DNA of 58,651 nt from a bacterium (GTDB taxonomy: Bacteria > Patescibacteriota > Minisyncoccia > JAUYLV01), in assembly GCA_030649025.1 (NCBI GenBank), contig JAUSGO010000002.1, positions 1 to 58,651 on the forward strand, given 5' to 3'. The position numbers and the translations under genes were made by a program. Shown here piece by piece: positions 8,257 through 13,983 of the stretch; position 1 is the first letter of the stretch; each line of letters opens with the position of its first letter. The notes under the pieces are model-generated. The model searched no databases. It was not told where the DNA came from and saw nothing but the letters and a program-made list of their open reading frames with translations.

Positions 8257-8270
8257 GACTGCTTAGAAAC

Positions 8271-8297
8271 AAAAAAACGCTTTGGAGCGTTTTTTTG
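8271..8297. terminator. bidirectional intrinsic terminator shared by the nuo operon and the convergent minus-strand operon
   Basis: aaaaaaACGCTttggAGCGTttttttt: a stem flanked by an A-run and a T-run. Confidence 0.7.
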
Positions 8298-8323
8298 TTT
8301 GCTGTGTTTTATCTTGTGGAACT

Positions 8324-9598
8324 CTATGCGGGCGAAGCGGTTGCCAGACTTCGTAGATCAACGGAAGGGTCCGCAAGTTTTTCGCGCAGGGATGAAATGT
8401 CACGCTGGTCGGTGATGAATTTTGACACCCACGGAAGTTCTGGGGTCATGTTGAATTGCGTTGCCCCGACAATGCGGTTGTTCTTAATGATGAAGCGAGA
8501 GATTTTTCCAGAGGCTCTAGAGCCGCGCTCAATCACTTCCTTGTCGGGCGTTACGCGCACATTGCCGACAAAACAAATGGAGAGTCCCAATCCCTGCGTA
8601 GTGTATGCGGAGAGCGTCTTAAATACCGTTTTTTTGCCCGTCATGTTCATAGCGGCGCATCTTCCGTGCATCATGGCGTTTGCCCAATTTCCAAGCTGTA
8701 CTCGCTCGCCCAGTATCACATCAAAATATGCCGCACAGTCTCCTGCCGCCCAAACATCGGGTAAGGACGTTTCCATGTATTCGTTGGTCTCGATAGCCCT
8801 CTCTCCTTTTAGACCGGAGGCTTTGAATGGCGCCAGGCGGTCCACAACGCCAATGCCGACAGAGATGAAACCGGTTTTCAATTCCCTTCCCTTGTTTGTT
8901 TTGACCGACTCGACCCGTTCTCCGCCCAGCACTTCCGTAACTTCCTCTTCATATAAAATCTCAACGCCGCTTTTTTTTAGCACGTCTTCTATTAAACGGC
9001 CGGACGGTTCATCCAACAAGATCTGCCAATAGTAGGGTTCGCGAAGCATTACCGTTGGCTTCATATTGCGCTTTATCATGATGTCGCAAAGCTCAAACGT
9101 AATGAACCCTCCGCCGATAAGAAGCCCCTCCTTGAGCGTTTCAAATTCCGCCATAATGCCCCGAGCATCATCCAGCGTGCGAAGATAATAAATTCCTTTT
9201 TTGTCGCTTCCGGGTATGGTCCATTTGCGCGGCGTACCGCCCAGAGCCAAGAGAAGCTTTTCATACTGCAACGCCTCTCCGTTCGAGAGGGAAACTTCCT
9301 TTTTTACAGCATCGAGCCCCAGCGCAGTTACCCCCTTGGAATATGCGATGTTTTTATCCGTATAAAAAGATTCTTTCTTTAGCCATACCGAATCTTCCGT
9401 AAGCTTCTTCAGCATGTAATTCTCCTTGGAGAGCGCGATGCGGGAATAAAAAATATACGGCTCGTCTCCCACGAGCGCAATGGATGCTTGCGGATCAAGA
9501 CTTCTTAACGTCTCTGCCGCGGTGGTACCCGCAACGCCTCCGCCGACTATCACGTACTTAAAATTTTGCATAGCAAAATTTTCAATATCCAATAACAA
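8324..9598 (-). CDS. FAD/NAD(P)-dependent pyridine nucleotide-disulfide-family oxidoreductase (ferredoxin/rubredoxin-reductase-like)
   Basis: N-terminal YVIVGGGVAGTTAA (FAD GxGxxG), a second LLIGGGFITFE dinucleotide fold, and a WAAGDCA motif. Confidence 0.85.
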   Translation of the reverse strand: MLLDIENFAMQNFKYVIVGGGVAGTTAAETLRSLDPQASIALVGDEPYIFYSRIALSKENYMLKKLTEDSVWLKKESFYTDKNIAYSKGVTALGLDAVKKEVSLSNGEALQYEKLLLALGGTPRKWTIPGSDKKGIYYLRTLDDARGIMAEFETLKEGLLIGGGFITFELCDIMIKRNMKPTVMLREPYYWQILLDEPSGRLIEDVLKKSGVEILYEEEVTEVLGGERVESVKTNKGRELKTGFISVGIGVVDRLAPFKASGLKGERAIETNEYMETSLPDVWAAGDCAAYFDVILGERVQLGNWANAMMHGRCAAMNMTGKKTVFKTLSAYTTQGLGLSICFVGNVRVTPDKEVIERGSRASGKISRFIIKNNRIVGATQFNMTPELPWVSKFITDQRDISSLREKLADPSVDLRSLATASPA

Positions 9599-9666
9599 AT
9601 TTCTAATATCTAATCAAATCTTGCCATTGAATATTAGCTATTGGGAATTTGGCATTCCCGAAGCGG
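9599..9666. repeat. AT-rich imperfect palindrome between the ferredoxin and reductase genes
   Basis: atatccaataacaaatttctaatat ... atattagctattggg. The same words (atatccaata, tctaat) recur at 391-414. Confidence 0.5.
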
Positions 9667-9939
9667 TTATGCTTCCGGATACACCTGCTTCCCCGTCTCG
9701 TCGTACAGAAATATAGCCTTGGTGGGGCAGGATTGGGCCGCAAGAAGCAGGTTGCCGTCATCGATGGCGGCCACGTTAAGCTCTGATACATCGGTAAGAT
9801 CGGATGTGGGACCGCTCTTTTTGGGAAGCACGGCCTTATTCTCCGCATCCAACGAGAACACGTCCGGATATATTGCCACACAGCTTGCCGCGCCGATGCA
9901 CAGCGCCCGGTCTACTTTCAGTTTTGTTATTTTTGCCAT
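9667..9939 (-). CDS. ferredoxin, single-cluster [3Fe-4S]-type pattern
   Basis: MAKITKLKVDRALCIGAASC...SCP carries the CxxAxxC...CP motif. Start trimmed from the ORF-track GTG (9954) to the ATG at 9939. Confidence 0.8.
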   Translation of the reverse strand: MAKITKLKVDRALCIGAASCVAIYPDVFSLDAENKAVLPKKSGPTSDLTDVSELNVAAIDDGNLLLAAQSCPTKAIFLYDETGKQVYPEA

Positions 9940-9944
9940 AATCT

Positions 9945-10056
9945 CTAAGGTCACGAATGATGCGAATAGTACGCGAATAACGCGAATTCACGAATAAGAC
10001 TGCTAAGCATTCGTGAATCTGTACATTCGTGTAGTATCTGTAAATTCGTGATTATT
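9945..10056 (-). repeat. CACGAAT/ATTCGTG hairpin element, copy A (hydrolase-ferredoxin spacer)
   Basis: The reverse complement matches copy B (28563-28686) with 3/45 and 4/45 arm mismatches by manual alignment. The loop differs. Confidence 0.85.
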
Positions 10057-10708
10057 GAATTTGTTTTTCCATCCACTCCGCTATCTGCCCCGTAAGTTCG
10101 GTATGTGCTTCAAAGATTTTTACGCCATGTCCTCCGGTTTCAAACTCTTGATACCAGAGATTTGCACGTTGCACGCCGGGTTCTTTGATGAGTTTTTGCG
10201 CGTCAGGATACGACGGGTCATCTTTTGTGGTGATGAGAGCCAGTGGACGATGGTATTCTACCATAACGTCATCCGTCCGCAACCCAAAGTAATTAAGTCC
10301 GGGGGAGAGGAGTATGGCGGCTTTTACCTCAAAATGGTCCGCGGCATAGGCAAGTGCGAGATTTGCACCTATGGAACTACCCACGACCACAAATTTCCCG
10401 TTCGGCGTTTCTCGTTTTAGAAAATCCATCGCGGCCGTAATGTCATAATACATCGTGTGGTAGTCTTCAAACTGATCGAATTTCAGGTCTTTTTTCTTGC
10501 CAAACCCTCCGCTCTTACCGTGCCCTCGAAGGTCAATAGCAAGCGTGTTCCATCCTTTCTTTTCAAGTGTTCCGCAAAAATCTTTCCACATCGCATGGTC
10601 GCGTCCGCGCTGGTGGAGAAGAAGTGCGGCTTTTGAACTTCCCGGCACCTGATGCCAATCTCCGAAAATCGTTGTATCGTCAATGGTTTTTAGAGATAAC
10701 TCTGACAT
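10052..10708 (-). CDS. alpha/beta hydrolase fold protein
   Basis: IDLRGHGKSGG and the nucleophile elbow VVVGSSIGANLA. Start trimmed to the ATG (MSELSL) at 10708 to remove overlap with cytochrome b. Confidence 0.75.
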   Translation of the reverse strand: MSELSLKTIDDTTIFGDWHQVPGSSKAALLLHQRGRDHAMWKDFCGTLEKKGWNTLAIDLRGHGKSGGFGKKKDLKFDQFEDYHTMYYDITAAMDFLKRETPNGKFVVVGSSIGANLALAYAADHFEVKAAILLSPGLNYFGLRTDDVMVEYHRPLALITTKDDPSYPDAQKLIKEPGVQRANLWYQEFETGGHGVKIFEAHTELTGQIAEWMEKQIQ

Positions 10709-10734
10709 GTTCCGGGTTTTAGGCTTCTTGTGCT

Positions 10735-11778
10735 TCAATGCGCCACTTGTTCCTGCTGTTCGATAAAATGCTCCGTATGCGCAACCTGTGGCGCAAGCGT
10801 CGCCCAGAAAGAGAGCGAGATAACTATTGCGATAGCGATAAGATAAATATATACGCCCCAATCAGCTCCGGCGCGGTCTTTGGTAAAAAGCGGAATGAGA
10901 ATGAAGATGAGAAAAAGCACCGGTGGCGCGATCACAATAGGCGTAAGCCCCCAGACATTCTCGATCGCCACAACCCATAACAGCCACCATGGCGGTTTTG
11001 TAACCTCGAGGCCCGCATAAGGAGAGGAGAGCAGGGGAGCGGGAAGCAGAATGGAAAGTGCTACAATGGCCACGCATGCAACGCCCACAAGCCATAAAAT
11101 TTTCCGCACCGACGGAGAGGAAAAAAATCCGGGTTGGGGCGCGAGTTGTCCGCGGATTGCGGCATCCGTCACTTTCTTCCACGGAGCTATAAGCGCCCGG
11201 AACGTCGGCGCAAAAAGGCCATGCAACACGATAAGAGAAATAATACCGAAGGGCAGTAAAACGGCATGCAACACAAAGAATCTGAAAAGCGCATTATGTT
11301 GGGAGAAAAAATCGGTGACGAACTCCGTATAGGGCATGTAGCTAGCCACAATGCCCGTAGTGCCTATGAAAAAGTGCGAGTAGGCTTCCAGCGCCTCCTG
11401 GTCTCCGCGCATAAAGGTGCCGATGAGCATCTCTGCGCTAACCATGATGAGCATCCCCACGCCTATCCACCAAGCATATCTCCTGGCTTTGCCGGATGGT
11501 TTGGTGAGCGCCACACGCGTCATATGGAGGAAAAGGGTGAACAGAAAAATATCTGAAGCCCAGGCATGGAAATTTCGAACGAATGCCGTAATGGGGTTCC
11601 CCATGATAGTAATCATGCTTTGATATGTCTCTTCGGGCTGGGCGCTGTAAAAAAGAGAGAGCACAATACCCGATACTATCAGGAGCAGAAGCAGCACCAT
11701 AAGCAAACCGCCAAGCACTGTGCCGGTCTGTTGAAGCTCAGATTTTATTTTTTGGATAGTGAGCATAATTTTTATCAT
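10735..11778 (-). CDS. cytochrome b (b/b6-type, di-haem) membrane protein
   Basis: H-x13-H in FHAWASDIFLFTLFLHM and H-x14-H in LHAVLLPFGIISLIVLHG. 347 aa, polytopic. An alternative start lies at 11766. Confidence 0.85.
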   Translation of the reverse strand: MIKIMLTIQKIKSELQQTGTVLGGLLMVLLLLLIVSGIVLSLFYSAQPEETYQSMITIMGNPITAFVRNFHAWASDIFLFTLFLHMTRVALTKPSGKARRYAWWIGVGMLIMVSAEMLIGTFMRGDQEALEAYSHFFIGTTGIVASYMPYTEFVTDFFSQHNALFRFFVLHAVLLPFGIISLIVLHGLFAPTFRALIAPWKKVTDAAIRGQLAPQPGFFSSPSVRKILWLVGVACVAIVALSILLPAPLLSSPYAGLEVTKPPWWLLWVVAIENVWGLTPIVIAPPVLFLIFILIPLFTKDRAGADWGVYIYLIAIAIVISLSFWATLAPQVAHTEHFIEQQEQVAH

Positions 11779-12295
11779 GAGACCTCAAGGCGAGAACTAT
11801 AATTAAAAGCGCGACGCTCCCAATGAGATAAGGTATTTTCGTAGTTATGTCAAGAAGTAAAATTTCTTTTTCTGCATTCACTAAATCAATTGTATTTAAT
11901 TCAGTTCCATTACAAATCCAGGGCCAGTTAAGATAATTTTCTGTATCCGAGCGAATCCTCTGTGTATAAATAAGATACGTCCTGCCTACATCTAAGTTAC
12001 TATAAGTATGCGTTATTCCAAAACCATCCTCATCAGTAGTAATTAGCATTATCTCGACACTTTTACCTGAAATTCCTTTCCACGACCTTAAAGTTTCGAA
12101 GATGCCAGTTATTCTCAGCTGACCCTTGTCAGAGTCCTCACTAATTTTTACTAGCCTCCCAACAAAGACCGCGTCTGATGATTTTAGTAGTTCAGACACG
12201 GAACGCGTCCCGCATGAGTATTGTCCGAACATTTCTGCGGGCAAGCTCAGTAGAAAAAAAATAGATAGAGTAAGACCTAGTTTTCTTAAAAACAT
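11738..12295 (-). CDS. exported protein with C-terminal TM anchor, unknown function (weak TIMP/NTR-like N-terminus)
   Basis: The ATG at 12295 sits 1 nt after the upstream stop. Signal peptide MFLRKLGLTLSIFFLLSLPAEMF, then ..CGTRSVSELLKSSDAVFVGRLV. Visibly AT-rich. Confidence 0.55.
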   Translation of the reverse strand: MFLRKLGLTLSIFFLLSLPAEMFGQYSCGTRSVSELLKSSDAVFVGRLVKISEDSDKGQLRITGIFETLRSWKGISGKSVEIMLITTDEDGFGITHTYSNLDVGRTYLIYTQRIRSDTENYLNWPWICNGTELNTIDLVNAEKEILLLDITTKIPYLIGSVALLIIVLALRSHDKNYAHYPKNKI

Positions 12296-12296
12296 A

Positions 12297-13580
12297 TCAG
12301 AGATTTTCGGGATGTCCCTCTGCTGGGATACTTTGAGAACCTTCTCTGGGTGCATTAGGAATCTTAGCGCCATCTGAAACTGGGACACTGGATATAGGCT
12401 GTGGGCGACGGGGATAGAAAAGGAGCATCATACCAAAAATAAACGCGGAGAGAGCGGCGAATTTTACGACAGAGCGCGTCTCTTCTTCTTTCTGCACATC
12501 GTGCACAAGTTGGGCAACCTGATCACGCGTGAGGCCGGGAATCATCTCTGTATCGCCGTGGCCCGGAGCATGCGTAATGCCACCCTCCCCGGGCAGTACC
12601 TCGATTATAAATGGTAATGCGGTTATTTGCTCTTTTCGTTGTACTTGCAGCCACCCTTTGTAGACTCCGGCTTCTGGAAATGATGTATTGAATACGATGT
12701 TGGGCCCAAAACGCAACTTCGAGCGCTCGGCAGAATCTTCGGGAATCTCGGCTTCGGGATGCGCGTGCAAATACTCAAGCGATTCCTCGGATAGTATGAC
12801 AAGATGCGCGGGTGAGGCCAAATATACTTCAATATCGTCGATGGGCGTGCCCAACACGGCATCATCCAATCGGAACGTGAGTCGCGCGTCTTCTCCAACG
12901 CGAAGCGTTGAGGGGGTTGTTCGAAGATCAAGTCGTATATTTCCAACAGTGACAGGGAATTGCGAAAGCTTCAAAAACGGCTGTATGAACGCGCCGCTCC
13001 CTACTTGGATATCCTTACGAAGAAGAATACCGTCCGTTCCCGTGGGTTTCAAATCGAAAAAAAGCGAATACGTCAGTTCGCGCGGATAGATAAAATTTTT
13101 AAGCACAAACGTACCGTCCGGCTGTAACGCGGGATGTTCATGAAAGAATTCTACCAAGTCAGAGCTGACCATAATGAGGTGGAGCTCTTTGTCATGCGTG
13201 ACTTCAAAACTTTTTATCTGCCTACCGGCCTCCTTCTCGCTAAATGTAAACTGCATGGTTAGCGGCGTTGTTGCCTGCAGGGATGCCGGCGTGATAGATA
13301 CCTCAAAAAATGCGCTCATATCCGCGCCTCCACCATGGTCATCTTGTCCGCCCATCGCACCTTCTTCGCCATGTCCATGTCCAACCTTCGCATCGGGCAA
13401 GCCGATTTGAGTGGCAGGATGCATGGCGTCAGTGGAGCCGCCATGGTCGCCAGCTGCAAAAACAATGCCCCCGTTCTCGAGGGTCATCAAAAATAGGAAA
13501 ACGGCCAGAACAGTGCCAAAGCTATAAATGCGATGGTTTCTCACGATATACAGTATACGCCGCTTATTGCAGTTTCCCAA
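12297..13580 (-). CDS. membrane-anchored exported protein with His/Gly/Asp-rich segment and two repeated domains each bearing an H-x-HP motif (putative metal binding)
   Basis: Contains GDHGGSTDAMHP..GHGHGEEGAMGGQDDHGGG. Repeats have ..LHLIMVSSDLVEFFHEHP.. and ..AHLVILSEESLEYLHAHP.. There is a C-terminal TM. The start is uncertain because a TTGGGA-17-TATACT promoter-like site lies inside the ORF-track N-terminus. Confidence 0.6.
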   Translation of the reverse strand: MGNCNKRRILYIVRNHRIYSFGTVLAVFLFLMTLENGGIVFAAGDHGGSTDAMHPATQIGLPDAKVGHGHGEEGAMGGQDDHGGGADMSAFFEVSITPASLQATTPLTMQFTFSEKEAGRQIKSFEVTHDKELHLIMVSSDLVEFFHEHPALQPDGTFVLKNFIYPRELTYSLFFDLKPTGTDGILLRKDIQVGSGAFIQPFLKLSQFPVTVGNIRLDLRTTPSTLRVGEDARLTFRLDDAVLGTPIDDIEVYLASPAHLVILSEESLEYLHAHPEAEIPEDSAERSKLRFGPNIVFNTSFPEAGVYKGWLQVQRKEQITALPFIIEVLPGEGGITHAPGHGDTEMIPGLTRDQVAQLVHDVQKEEETRSVVKFAALSAFIFGMMLLFYPRRPQPISSVPVSDGAKIPNAPREGSQSIPAEGHPENL

Positions 13581-13658: not shown

Positions 13659-13686
13659 AGCTGAAGGAGACCTTTTTCCTTCAGCT
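13659..13686 (-). terminator. intrinsic terminator of the Zn-ribbon gene
   Basis: On the minus strand: AGCTGAAGGAaaaaggtcTCCTTCAGCT followed by TTTATTTTATTTATTTT. It overlaps the stop codon. Confidence 0.7.
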
Positions 13687-13983
13687 GTCCGGGAAGAGAG
13701 GGCGCTGCCTCTCCCTTTCTTTTTTTGCGCGCCGAGTTTTTATTTGGCGCAGGGTGGCTTCTTGCGGAGGTTTTTTCCCGACTCCCTCGGCGCAAGATTG
13801 GCAGTAAGTATAACAGTAGTCGAAACGTCTGCCTTCCAGGAATGTCTGCCGATACGCTTTGGTGAGAGCCGGGATATCACAGCCGCACTTGTCGCACTTG
13901 AAGACTTTGGTAGTAACCACCCATTCCTCAGTAACTCGGCGGGATTGTCCGATGAGCAGTCCTTCTATTCTTCCGATTCTCAT
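13681..13983 (-). CDS. small Cys-rich (zinc-ribbon-like) protein with basic C-terminal tail
   Basis: 100 aa with CDKCGC ... CYTYCQSC. GGGAGG RBS, own promoter and terminator. Confidence 0.5.
   Translation of the reverse strand: MRIGRIEGLLIGQSRRVTEEWVVTTKVFKCDKCGCDIPALTKAYRQTFLEGRRFDYCYTYCQSCAEGVGKKPPQEATLRQIKTRRAKKERERQRPLFPDS

Follow-up and report, generated by a model that had tools for sequence, protein, structure and literature searches.

A Rieske-less cytochrome b paired with a histidine-rich exported subunit, and a possible ferredoxin-fed electron route, in a groundwater bacterium of the Candidate Phyla Radiation

In the archaeal SoxABCD complex and in the ExtP/Cbc-type systems of Geobacter, cytochrome b homologues are partnered by an oxidase or by multihaem cytochromes c, and quinol is the donor. 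A further Rieske-less cytochrome b is encoded in the 58,651-nucleotide stretch of DNA analysed here (the window; GenBank contig JAUSGO010000002.1 of assembly GCA_030649025.1, below contig C37 of genome G000), which originates from a groundwater metagenome and belongs to a 1.23-Mb genome of 40 contigs, scored 100% complete, from the class Minisyncoccia within the Candidate Phyla Radiation (CPR) of ultra-small bacteria; relatives in the public record are named Sungbacteria, Lloydbacteria, Parcubacteria and Paceibacterota. Six open reading frames (ORFs), all on the minus strand, occupy positions 8324-13580 (Table 1), and among them are the cytochrome b gene and a gene for a His-rich exported protein, termed the partner. 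The likeness to SoxC and ExtP lies in a cytochrome b homologue that would hand electrons to an outer protein other than Rieske and in the Pro that stands second in the Qo motif, as in the PPWF of SoxC (PMC4122944); the difference lies in the putatively copper-type, His-rich partner and in the neighbouring ferredoxin and reductase genes. It is proposed, tentatively, that partner and cytochrome b form a two-subunit module which is fed from NAD(P)H through ferredoxin and passes electrons to an acceptor outside the cell.

A preliminary description of this DNA, made from the sequence alone, had noted the six minus-strand genes, a di-haem cytochrome b with four His ligands and neither a Rieske nor a cytochrome c1 partner, a ferredoxin of the CxxAxxC...CP pattern beside a reductase-like flavoprotein, a terminator common to this unit and the convergent nuo operon, a complex I lacking the N module and, as a question, an extracytoplasmic metal protein as the outer partner of the cytochrome. 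The observations are confirmed by the ORFs and profile searches described below, and the metal protein is favoured by fold matches and a predicted complex; the interpretation placed on them, in which complex I formed part of the route, is partly supported.

The cytochrome b matches Cytochrome_B (PF00033, 57.4 bits against a cut-off of 27.2) and Cytochrom_B_N_2 (PF13631, 45.7 bits; cut-off 27), both of which were again exceeded in a whole-genome profile search, and its helices A-B give a weak Pfam match to DUF4405. As in the bc1 and b6f complexes, it has a full-length cytochrome b fold, with seven predicted helices, as in b6 taken with subunit IV: its best match among solved relatives is a cytochrome b6 (7r0w, E value 1.4e-20), mitochondrial cytochrome b can be aligned over positions 19-320, and the AlphaFold model of the protein alone (predicted local distance difference test, pLDDT, 72; predicted template-modelling score 0.71) was matched by Foldseek to cytochrome b of bc1 complexes with template-modelling (TM) scores of 0.62-0.66 over about 340 columns. 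The four predicted haem ligands (H67, H81, H167 and H182) are invariant in all 16 family members and align with the His-bearing segments, helices B and D, of Synechocystis cytochrome b6, and their spacing of 14 and 15 residues is that of the b6 type.

The system differs from bc1 and b6f in several respects. No Rieske protein (PF00355) was found in the genome by a search that did give matches in control genomes, nor was the cytochrome c maturation family Cytochrom_C_asm (PF01578), the cytochrome c families themselves not having been searched, and cytochrome c1 or f likewise appears to be absent. The Cys that carries haem cn in b6 (YCLGG) is replaced by Val, Leu or Ile, and no Cys column is invariant in the family. 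The PEWY position reads PPWW in the window, the acidic residue of the Qo motif being unconserved (Pro, Ser or Ala) while Kxx-WW is invariant. Further invariant residues on the outer side are D122, E124, Y129, H131, E254, K257 and the C-terminal H330-T-E, part of a conserved outer AHTEH motif that is an addition to the bc1/b6f pattern, as is a His-rich partner of no described family. In the predicted topology the inner loops are basic and the outer loops acidic and His-bearing. In many members of a wider family (P0065-P0113) the chain likewise stops a few residues beyond the final helix and carries there a conserved His, often within S/A-H-L-x-M, which, judged from sequence, could serve as an extra outer-face ligand.

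The family is rare. About 35 close database relatives (>50% identity) exist, all named ones from CPR bacteria; among 1.84 billion representative proteins just 53 clusters match at an E value of 1e-30 or better; and members occur in 4 of 401 genomes sampled from the class (G000, G001, G130 and G329). The best NCBIfam match is ExtP of a selenite/tellurite-reduction operon (NF040969), at 90.3 bits against a cut-off of 290, so the protein is not a member of that family. In the literature, no description of the cytochrome b-partner family was found, nor anything relevant on Sungbacteria cytochromes or on CPR nirK together with cytochrome b; accounts of CPR respiration describe bc1-type, NDH-2 and bo3 components, among which this family does not figure (PMC5220378, PMC8407418). 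A cytochrome b of genome G025 (29% identity) was considered and rejected as a member, its gene being part of a conventional Rieske/cytochrome b operon that also involves multihaem cytochromes; on the flanks of this operon (contig C1, L006:9158-17582) lie several genes for multihaem cytochromes c and one for a V-type ATPase subunit I. In Sungbacteria 47_10 (L014:3815-4761) the cytochrome b matches in two pieces with a gap, and the gene may be frameshifted or misassembled there, because a near-identical metagenome contig (L044) has it intact.

The partner consists of a signal peptide, a tail rich in His, Met, Gly and Asp that includes MHPATQIGLP, two beta-sandwich domains, an amphipathic helix and a C-terminal membrane helix. 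In its AlphaFold model the two domains (residues 57-165 and 174-300) have pLDDT >90, the tail is disordered and the C-terminal helix is long. Each domain holds an invariant H..H-L...H-x-H-P cluster (H103/H116/H118 and H228/H241/H243). Short forms of the partner have 107-144 residues, and long forms, as in the window, have the two domains inserted between the motif and the helix. In most relatives a His is the first mature residue after cleavage of the signal peptide, and the tails of Chloroflexi homologues contain MxGMDM repeats, of the Met/His/Asp type found in copper-binding loops. Homologues outside CPR bacteria, in myxobacteria and actinomycetes, lack tail and anchor, and some carry cupredoxin, YtkA or HMBD domains.

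The window partner matched neither Pfam nor NCBIfam, PF13115 (YtkA) being on record solely for homologue P0051; its alignment with sequences of solved structures gave chance matches only (E value 0.38 or worse), and Foldseek with the two-domain model returned generic immunoglobulin-type matches of low TM score and one weak match to Zcp/DUF4198. A fold search against representative structures placed first the copper-resistance protein CrdA of H. pylori (Z 10.8, root-mean-square deviation 2.1 over 99 residues), followed by the iron/copper proteins HftA, Tp34 and FtrA-P19 (Z 8.0-8.6), PmoD (7.6) and CopC (7.3). With CrdA, YtkA/CtaK, P19/FtrA/Tp34, CopC and PmoD the partner appears to share a beta-sandwich and putative His-based metal sites, and with CtaK the membrane anchor (PMC13344008; PMC9182242); it differs from these periplasmic copper proteins in having no significant sequence match to them and in that tandem H..HL...HxHP domains are inserted in a cytochrome b subunit. 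Because of the CrdA-type fold matches, the copper-domain homologues, the MxGMDM tails and a Sungbacteria locus with copper genes (see below), the partner is read as a putative copper-binding electron acceptor located outside the cell membrane.

Structure prediction for the partner together with cytochrome b and its two haems gave complex scores of 0.87, 0.86 and 0.87, against 0.00 for the best of three controls; 58 of 80 solved complexes attain the mark applied to this score, as do 2 of 110 mismatched pairs, counts that are approximate here, custom alignments having been used and haem included. The runs share at least 52% of their contacts, and the pLDDT of the partner is at least 70. In the predicted interface, residues 25-34 (ATQIGLPDAK) and 319-362 of the partner lie against residues 118-134 and 241-263 and helices B and G of cytochrome b. 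The two loops are the cd loop and the ef loop, the latter with PPWW, on the outer face, and the same loops are poorly ordered when cytochrome b is modelled alone. The score is unlikely to reflect a structure already known to the predictor, because the partner belongs to no solved family, and the predicted complex agrees with natural fusions of partner and cytochrome b. The models support binding of the partner to the outer loops of cytochrome b, roughly where bc1 and b6f complexes have their Rieske protein and their site of quinol oxidation; with its single-helix partner on the cd and ef loops, the arrangement would resemble these complexes.

Loci were compared by tblastn across 13 species-genome loci and 34 metagenome contigs. 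Every CPR cytochrome b locus has directly upstream, in short or long form, a gene for a partner with a signal peptide, H-P-x-TQIGLP, an amphipathic helix and a membrane helix, and the partner tail is fused ahead of cytochrome b in P0025, P0031, the Hydrothermarchaeota, the Chloroflexi and the representatives P0066-P0071 and P0080. The conserved unit is thus partner plus cytochrome b, and not the block of six genes that the preliminary description had envisaged. The hydrolase follows cytochrome b only in close relatives of the window (G001, L041, L042 and L063), and the small AT-rich gene between partner and cytochrome b was found in the window genome only, giving no tblastn match in the metagenome loci and leaving its slot unoccupied in G001, L009 and L014; it is a lineage-specific insertion. 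The sister genome G001 otherwise retains the block, which is followed there by msrA and a VIT1-type gene. At 9 of 13 informative loci, ferredoxin and reductase genes lie no more than 4 kb from cytochrome b, in at least four different arrangements: they may be adjacent to it, beyond the hydrolase, beyond a restriction-modification methylase, or encoded on the other strand, following NirK-DUF420 or DUF420. The methylase, an Eco57I/N6-methylase-type gene, stands between cytochrome b and ferredoxin-reductase-hydrogenase genes (L011:2338-3879). In the Sungbacteria locus the order is CsoR, four genes, cupredoxin, CopA, partner, cytochrome b, NirK and DUF420, with reductase and ferredoxin on the other strand. 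The DUF420 protein there is CtaM-like. CtaM and YtkA/CtaK domains take part in copper handling and trafficking in B. subtilis (PMC13344008).

The ferredoxin matches Fer4_15 (38.1 bits) and Fer4_13 (35.6 bits) and has exactly three Cys in the pattern CxxAxxC...CP, so that its cluster is probably [3Fe-4S]. The flavoprotein matches Pyr_redox_2 (171.7 bits, 3e-50) and Reductase_C (29 bits), both over their cut-offs, and its nearest named NCBIfam families, all below cut-off, are ferredoxin--NAD+ reductases of dioxygenase systems. The two proteins belong to the same families as the reductases and [3Fe-4S] ferredoxins of P450 and dioxygenase systems, with the same ferredoxin motif; unlike in those systems, neither a P450 nor a Rieske oxygenase was found in the genome, and the CPR pair stands beside [NiFe] hydrogenase or cytochrome b. 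Close reductase orthologues (at least 43% identity) occur in about 25 of the 401 class genomes, usually with the ferredoxin gene directly upstream, and in about 20 class genomes the pair occurs without cytochrome b, often ahead of genes for the small and large [NiFe] hydrogenase subunits. Because it is found beside hydrogenase genes as well as beside cytochrome b, the pair is a general NAD(P)H:ferredoxin cassette of CPR bacteria, one that joins with various partners. The four-gene cassette of ferredoxin, reductase and [NiFe] small and large subunits recurs in L011:4543-7895, L050:1896-5553, L031, L033 and L034, and has the look of an NAD(P)-linked hydrogenase that makes use of a redox pair of the P450 type.

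In the proposed route, electrons would pass from NAD(P)H through the flavin adenine dinucleotide (FAD)-dependent reductase to the acidic ferredoxin, which may dock on the basic inner face of cytochrome b; they would then move from the inner to the outer haem, on to the putative outer copper/His site of the partner, and from there to an extracytoplasmic acceptor, possibly the nitrite reductase NirK, encoded elsewhere in the genome, or Cu(II). In genomes that also possess an 11-subunit NDH-1, scavenged quinol could be a second electron input. The low isoelectric point of the ferredoxin (Table 1) fits the basic inner loops of cytochrome b. To our knowledge, no shuttle of the MsrQ, FoxB, DUF4405, FezC or NOX type works with a separate ferredoxin and reductase or with a TQIGLP-type partner. 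The likeness to MsrQ, PepSY-like/FoxB, DUF4405, FezC and NOX/FRE proteins is a functional analogy only, in which two stacked b haems connect a cytoplasmic donor with an outer metal or redox protein (PMC11334425), and these proteins differ in fold family and helix count. A reversed flow, with a cuprous oxidase drawing electrons inward from Cu(I), was dropped on thermodynamic considerations, by inference only.

NirK is encoded on contig C4 (TIGR02376, 320.5 bits against a cut-off of 296.3; AniA, 1kbv, E value 2e-92) in a cluster (L022:5882-8726) of two membrane proteins of 154 and 114 amino acids (aa), NirK, a thioredoxin-like protein and VKOR. The 154-aa protein, two genes upstream of NirK, has homologues (26% identity, pairwise E value 5e-9) encoded directly upstream of partner and cytochrome b at the Lloydbacteria-type loci L013 and L046. 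Of the 8 genomes that possess this cytochrome b (the carriers), 5 have NirK, compared with 33 of the 401 genomes of the class sample. Elsewhere the window genome encodes a CsoR-type repressor and an HMA-DsbD-cupredoxin protein with DUF3105 and CopA. A more specific form of the proposal, in which the module is a quinone-less respiratory one, a copper-binding subunit with an N-terminal-His tail replacing Rieske protein and cytochrome c and ferredoxin passing electrons of NAD(P)H or H2 through it to extracellular nitrite via NirK, is regarded as rather unlikely.

Several findings weigh against the ferredoxin-fed module. The predicted mature start of the window partner is AGDH..., not His, and P0031 likewise lacks an N-terminal His. 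Haem would have to be scavenged, because neither ferrochelatase nor a UbiA-family prenyltransferase was found in the genome. Of the 33 NirK-bearing genomes, 30 lack the cytochrome, and G001 has the block without NirK. In four clades (L012/L051, L046/L047, the fused L052/L054, and L015) partner and cytochrome b occur as a pair and neither ferredoxin nor reductase is encoded close by, which is also the case in the archaeal and Chloroflexi relatives. The carriers are enriched in nuoH (4 of 8, as compared with 26 of 401). The counts are small, and genomes that are related do not provide independent cases. Finally, the protein retains the cytochrome b fold in full, the Qo-like PPWW included, so that quinol oxidation is possible.

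In this genome the nuo genes of complex I run in the order A, B, a methyltransferase gene, C and D on contig C24, and D followed by H through N on C37, nuoD leading straight to nuoH. Pfam confirmed the subunits D, H, I, J, L, M and N, and no match to Complex1_51K (nuoF) was found in the genome, in keeping with an NDH-1 of 11 subunits without the N module. The preliminary description had routed electrons from the ferredoxin through this complex and quinone to cytochrome b, and had held that scattering of the genes away from nuo in relatives, or failure of the cytochrome b call, would speak against it. The cytochrome b call stood; the nuo link did not, since no family locus besides the window, in either set of loci compared, has a nuo gene in its flanks, and nuoH of G001 lies on another contig. 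The methyltransferase gene between nuoB and nuoC belongs to Methyltransf_28 (PF02636, MidA/NDUFAF7-type; L024:7259-8308 on C24), the mitochondrial members of which methylate the 49-kDa subunit during complex I assembly, and an ATP-synthase alpha/beta gene lies upstream.

In a first alternative, the Qo-type site oxidizes scavenged quinol, the His/copper partner replaces the Rieske protein, and reductase and ferredoxin feed NDH-1, which reduces quinone. Such a quinol oxidase would account for the retention of the whole fold with PPWW at the PEWY position, PPWF being a working Qo variant in archaeal SoxC and SoxN homologues (PMC4122944), for the predicted docking of the partner on the cd and ef loops like a Rieske head, and for the relatives that stand alone in Archaea and Chloroflexi; since profile searches found no haem-copper oxidase and no cytochrome bd in the genome, another outlet for quinol would also be needed. 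Besides nuoH, VKOR, a quinone user, occurs in 4 of the 8 carriers, the window genome included, and at least one of nuoH, VKOR and UbiA is present in every carrier except G329. UbiA itself was found in 1 of the 8 carriers only, and not in the window genome. G329, a Sungbacteria genome that is 98% complete, lacks nuoH, VKOR and UbiA, and still its genes for cytochrome b, NirK, ferredoxin and reductase stand together in a cluster, the most complete of all. This distribution of quinone functions is the main ground for ranking the ferredoxin-fed reading above quinol oxidation. The unconserved acidic residue of the Qo motif also argues against a quinol oxidase, as do the adjacency of nuo in the window only and the fact that 24 of the 26 nuoH-bearing genomes of the class sample lack the cytochrome b family, about 6 of the 26 having a close reductase orthologue. 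Quinol oxidation is judged unlikely on the whole, though less so in the window genome, where NDH-1 and VKOR are encoded and no other oxidase was found.

A second alternative, held to be distinctly improbable, places the module in copper handling instead of respiration, as a surface cupric reductase or a copper relay that draws on cytoplasmic reducing power, for example in loading NirK or together with CopA. The CsoR, cupredoxin, CopA and DUF420 genes around the Sungbacteria locus (cf. PMC13344008), the fold matches to CrdA, P19 and CopC, the Met/His-rich tails, and the CsoR, CopA and HMA-DsbD-cupredoxin proteins of the window genome itself would all suit such a role. However, the copper context is seen in one lineage only and no copper gene stands beside the window locus, the short partners are without the two metal-binding domains, and CopA exports Cu(I), so that the need for an outer reductase is not obvious.

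That the pair, the hydrolase and the ferredoxin/reductase genes are independent modules sharing a transcript by accident of a small, shuffled genome is very improbable. In its favour, the ferredoxin-reductase pair often precedes hydrogenase genes in genomes without cytochrome b, the hydrolase and small gene are clade-specific insertions and the 70-110 nt spacers round the ferredoxin gene contain a repeat element. Against it, the cassette, although rare in the class, recurs next to cytochrome b at 9 of 13 informative loci, its order and orientation varying.

If the ferredoxin-fed reading with NirK as acceptor holds, quinone-less CPR bacteria could dispose of electrons from NAD(P)H or H2 onto nitrite. 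CPR bacteria are usually viewed as fermenters without electron transport chains, and yet NirK is encoded by many of them and NDH-1 by some, enzymes for which no electron route in or out is known in these bacteria. The module would offer a concrete and testable route made up of four small genes, and would broaden the known range of cytochrome b partners in a family that is common to CPR bacteria, Archaea (Hydrothermarchaeota) and Chloroflexi.

The unit begins just downstream of a terminator-like hairpin at 13659-13686, because that hairpin closes the preceding gene, and it ends at a hairpin placed between the stop codons of nuoN (8256) and the reductase gene (8324). The junctions, described earlier as tiny or overlapping throughout, are so at the first three positions (1 nt, an overlap of about 30-40 nt, and 26 nt), whereas the ferredoxin gene is bounded by 97-112 nt, with the hairpin repeat, and by 68-95 nt. 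The start of the partner gene is uncertain, TTG at 13580 or, according to the database record, ATG at 13487.

Table 1. Positions of the genes and sequence elements of the unit within the window.
Feature	Position	Strand	Basis or characteristics
Partner subunit (His-rich exported protein)	12297..13580	-	Signal peptide, TQIGLP tail, two beta-sandwich domains, C-terminal membrane helix
Small AT-rich gene, 185 aa, exported and C-terminally anchored	11738..12295	-	Sequence features
Cytochrome b, b6 type, seven predicted helices	10735..11778 (likely ATG start at 11766)	-	Pfam, alignment, model
Cytoplasmic alpha/beta hydrolase, GSSIG nucleophile elbow	10052..10708	-	Hydrolase_4 62.5 bits; Abhydrolase_1
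Spacer of 97 nt, hairpin element	9955..10051		Direct and inverted CACGAAT/ATTCGTG repeats
Single-cluster ferredoxin, three Cys, isoelectric point 4.7	9667..9954 (likely ATG start at 9939)	-	Fer4_15, Fer4_13
FAD/NAD(P)H ferredoxin-reductase-type flavoprotein	8324..9598 (likely ATG start at 9571)	-	Pyr_redox_2 and Reductase_C
Palindromic terminator-like hairpin, common to convergent nuoN	8267..8300		15-pair stem, A-run on one side, T-run on the other

The GC content of the small AT-rich gene is 0.37, against about 0.50 in its neighbours, and its product matched no Pfam or NCBIfam family. Assignment of the hydrolase as MenH, its best named NCBIfam match (E value 1e-7), was rejected, as the match lies far under the cut-off and reflects generic alpha/beta-hydrolase similarity, and no claim regarding menaquinone is made from it. 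Just upstream of the unit, a 100-aa ORF on the minus strand (13681-13983), for which no Pfam or NCBIfam family was matched, encodes paired CxxC motifs of zinc-ribbon-like appearance and has its own terminator.

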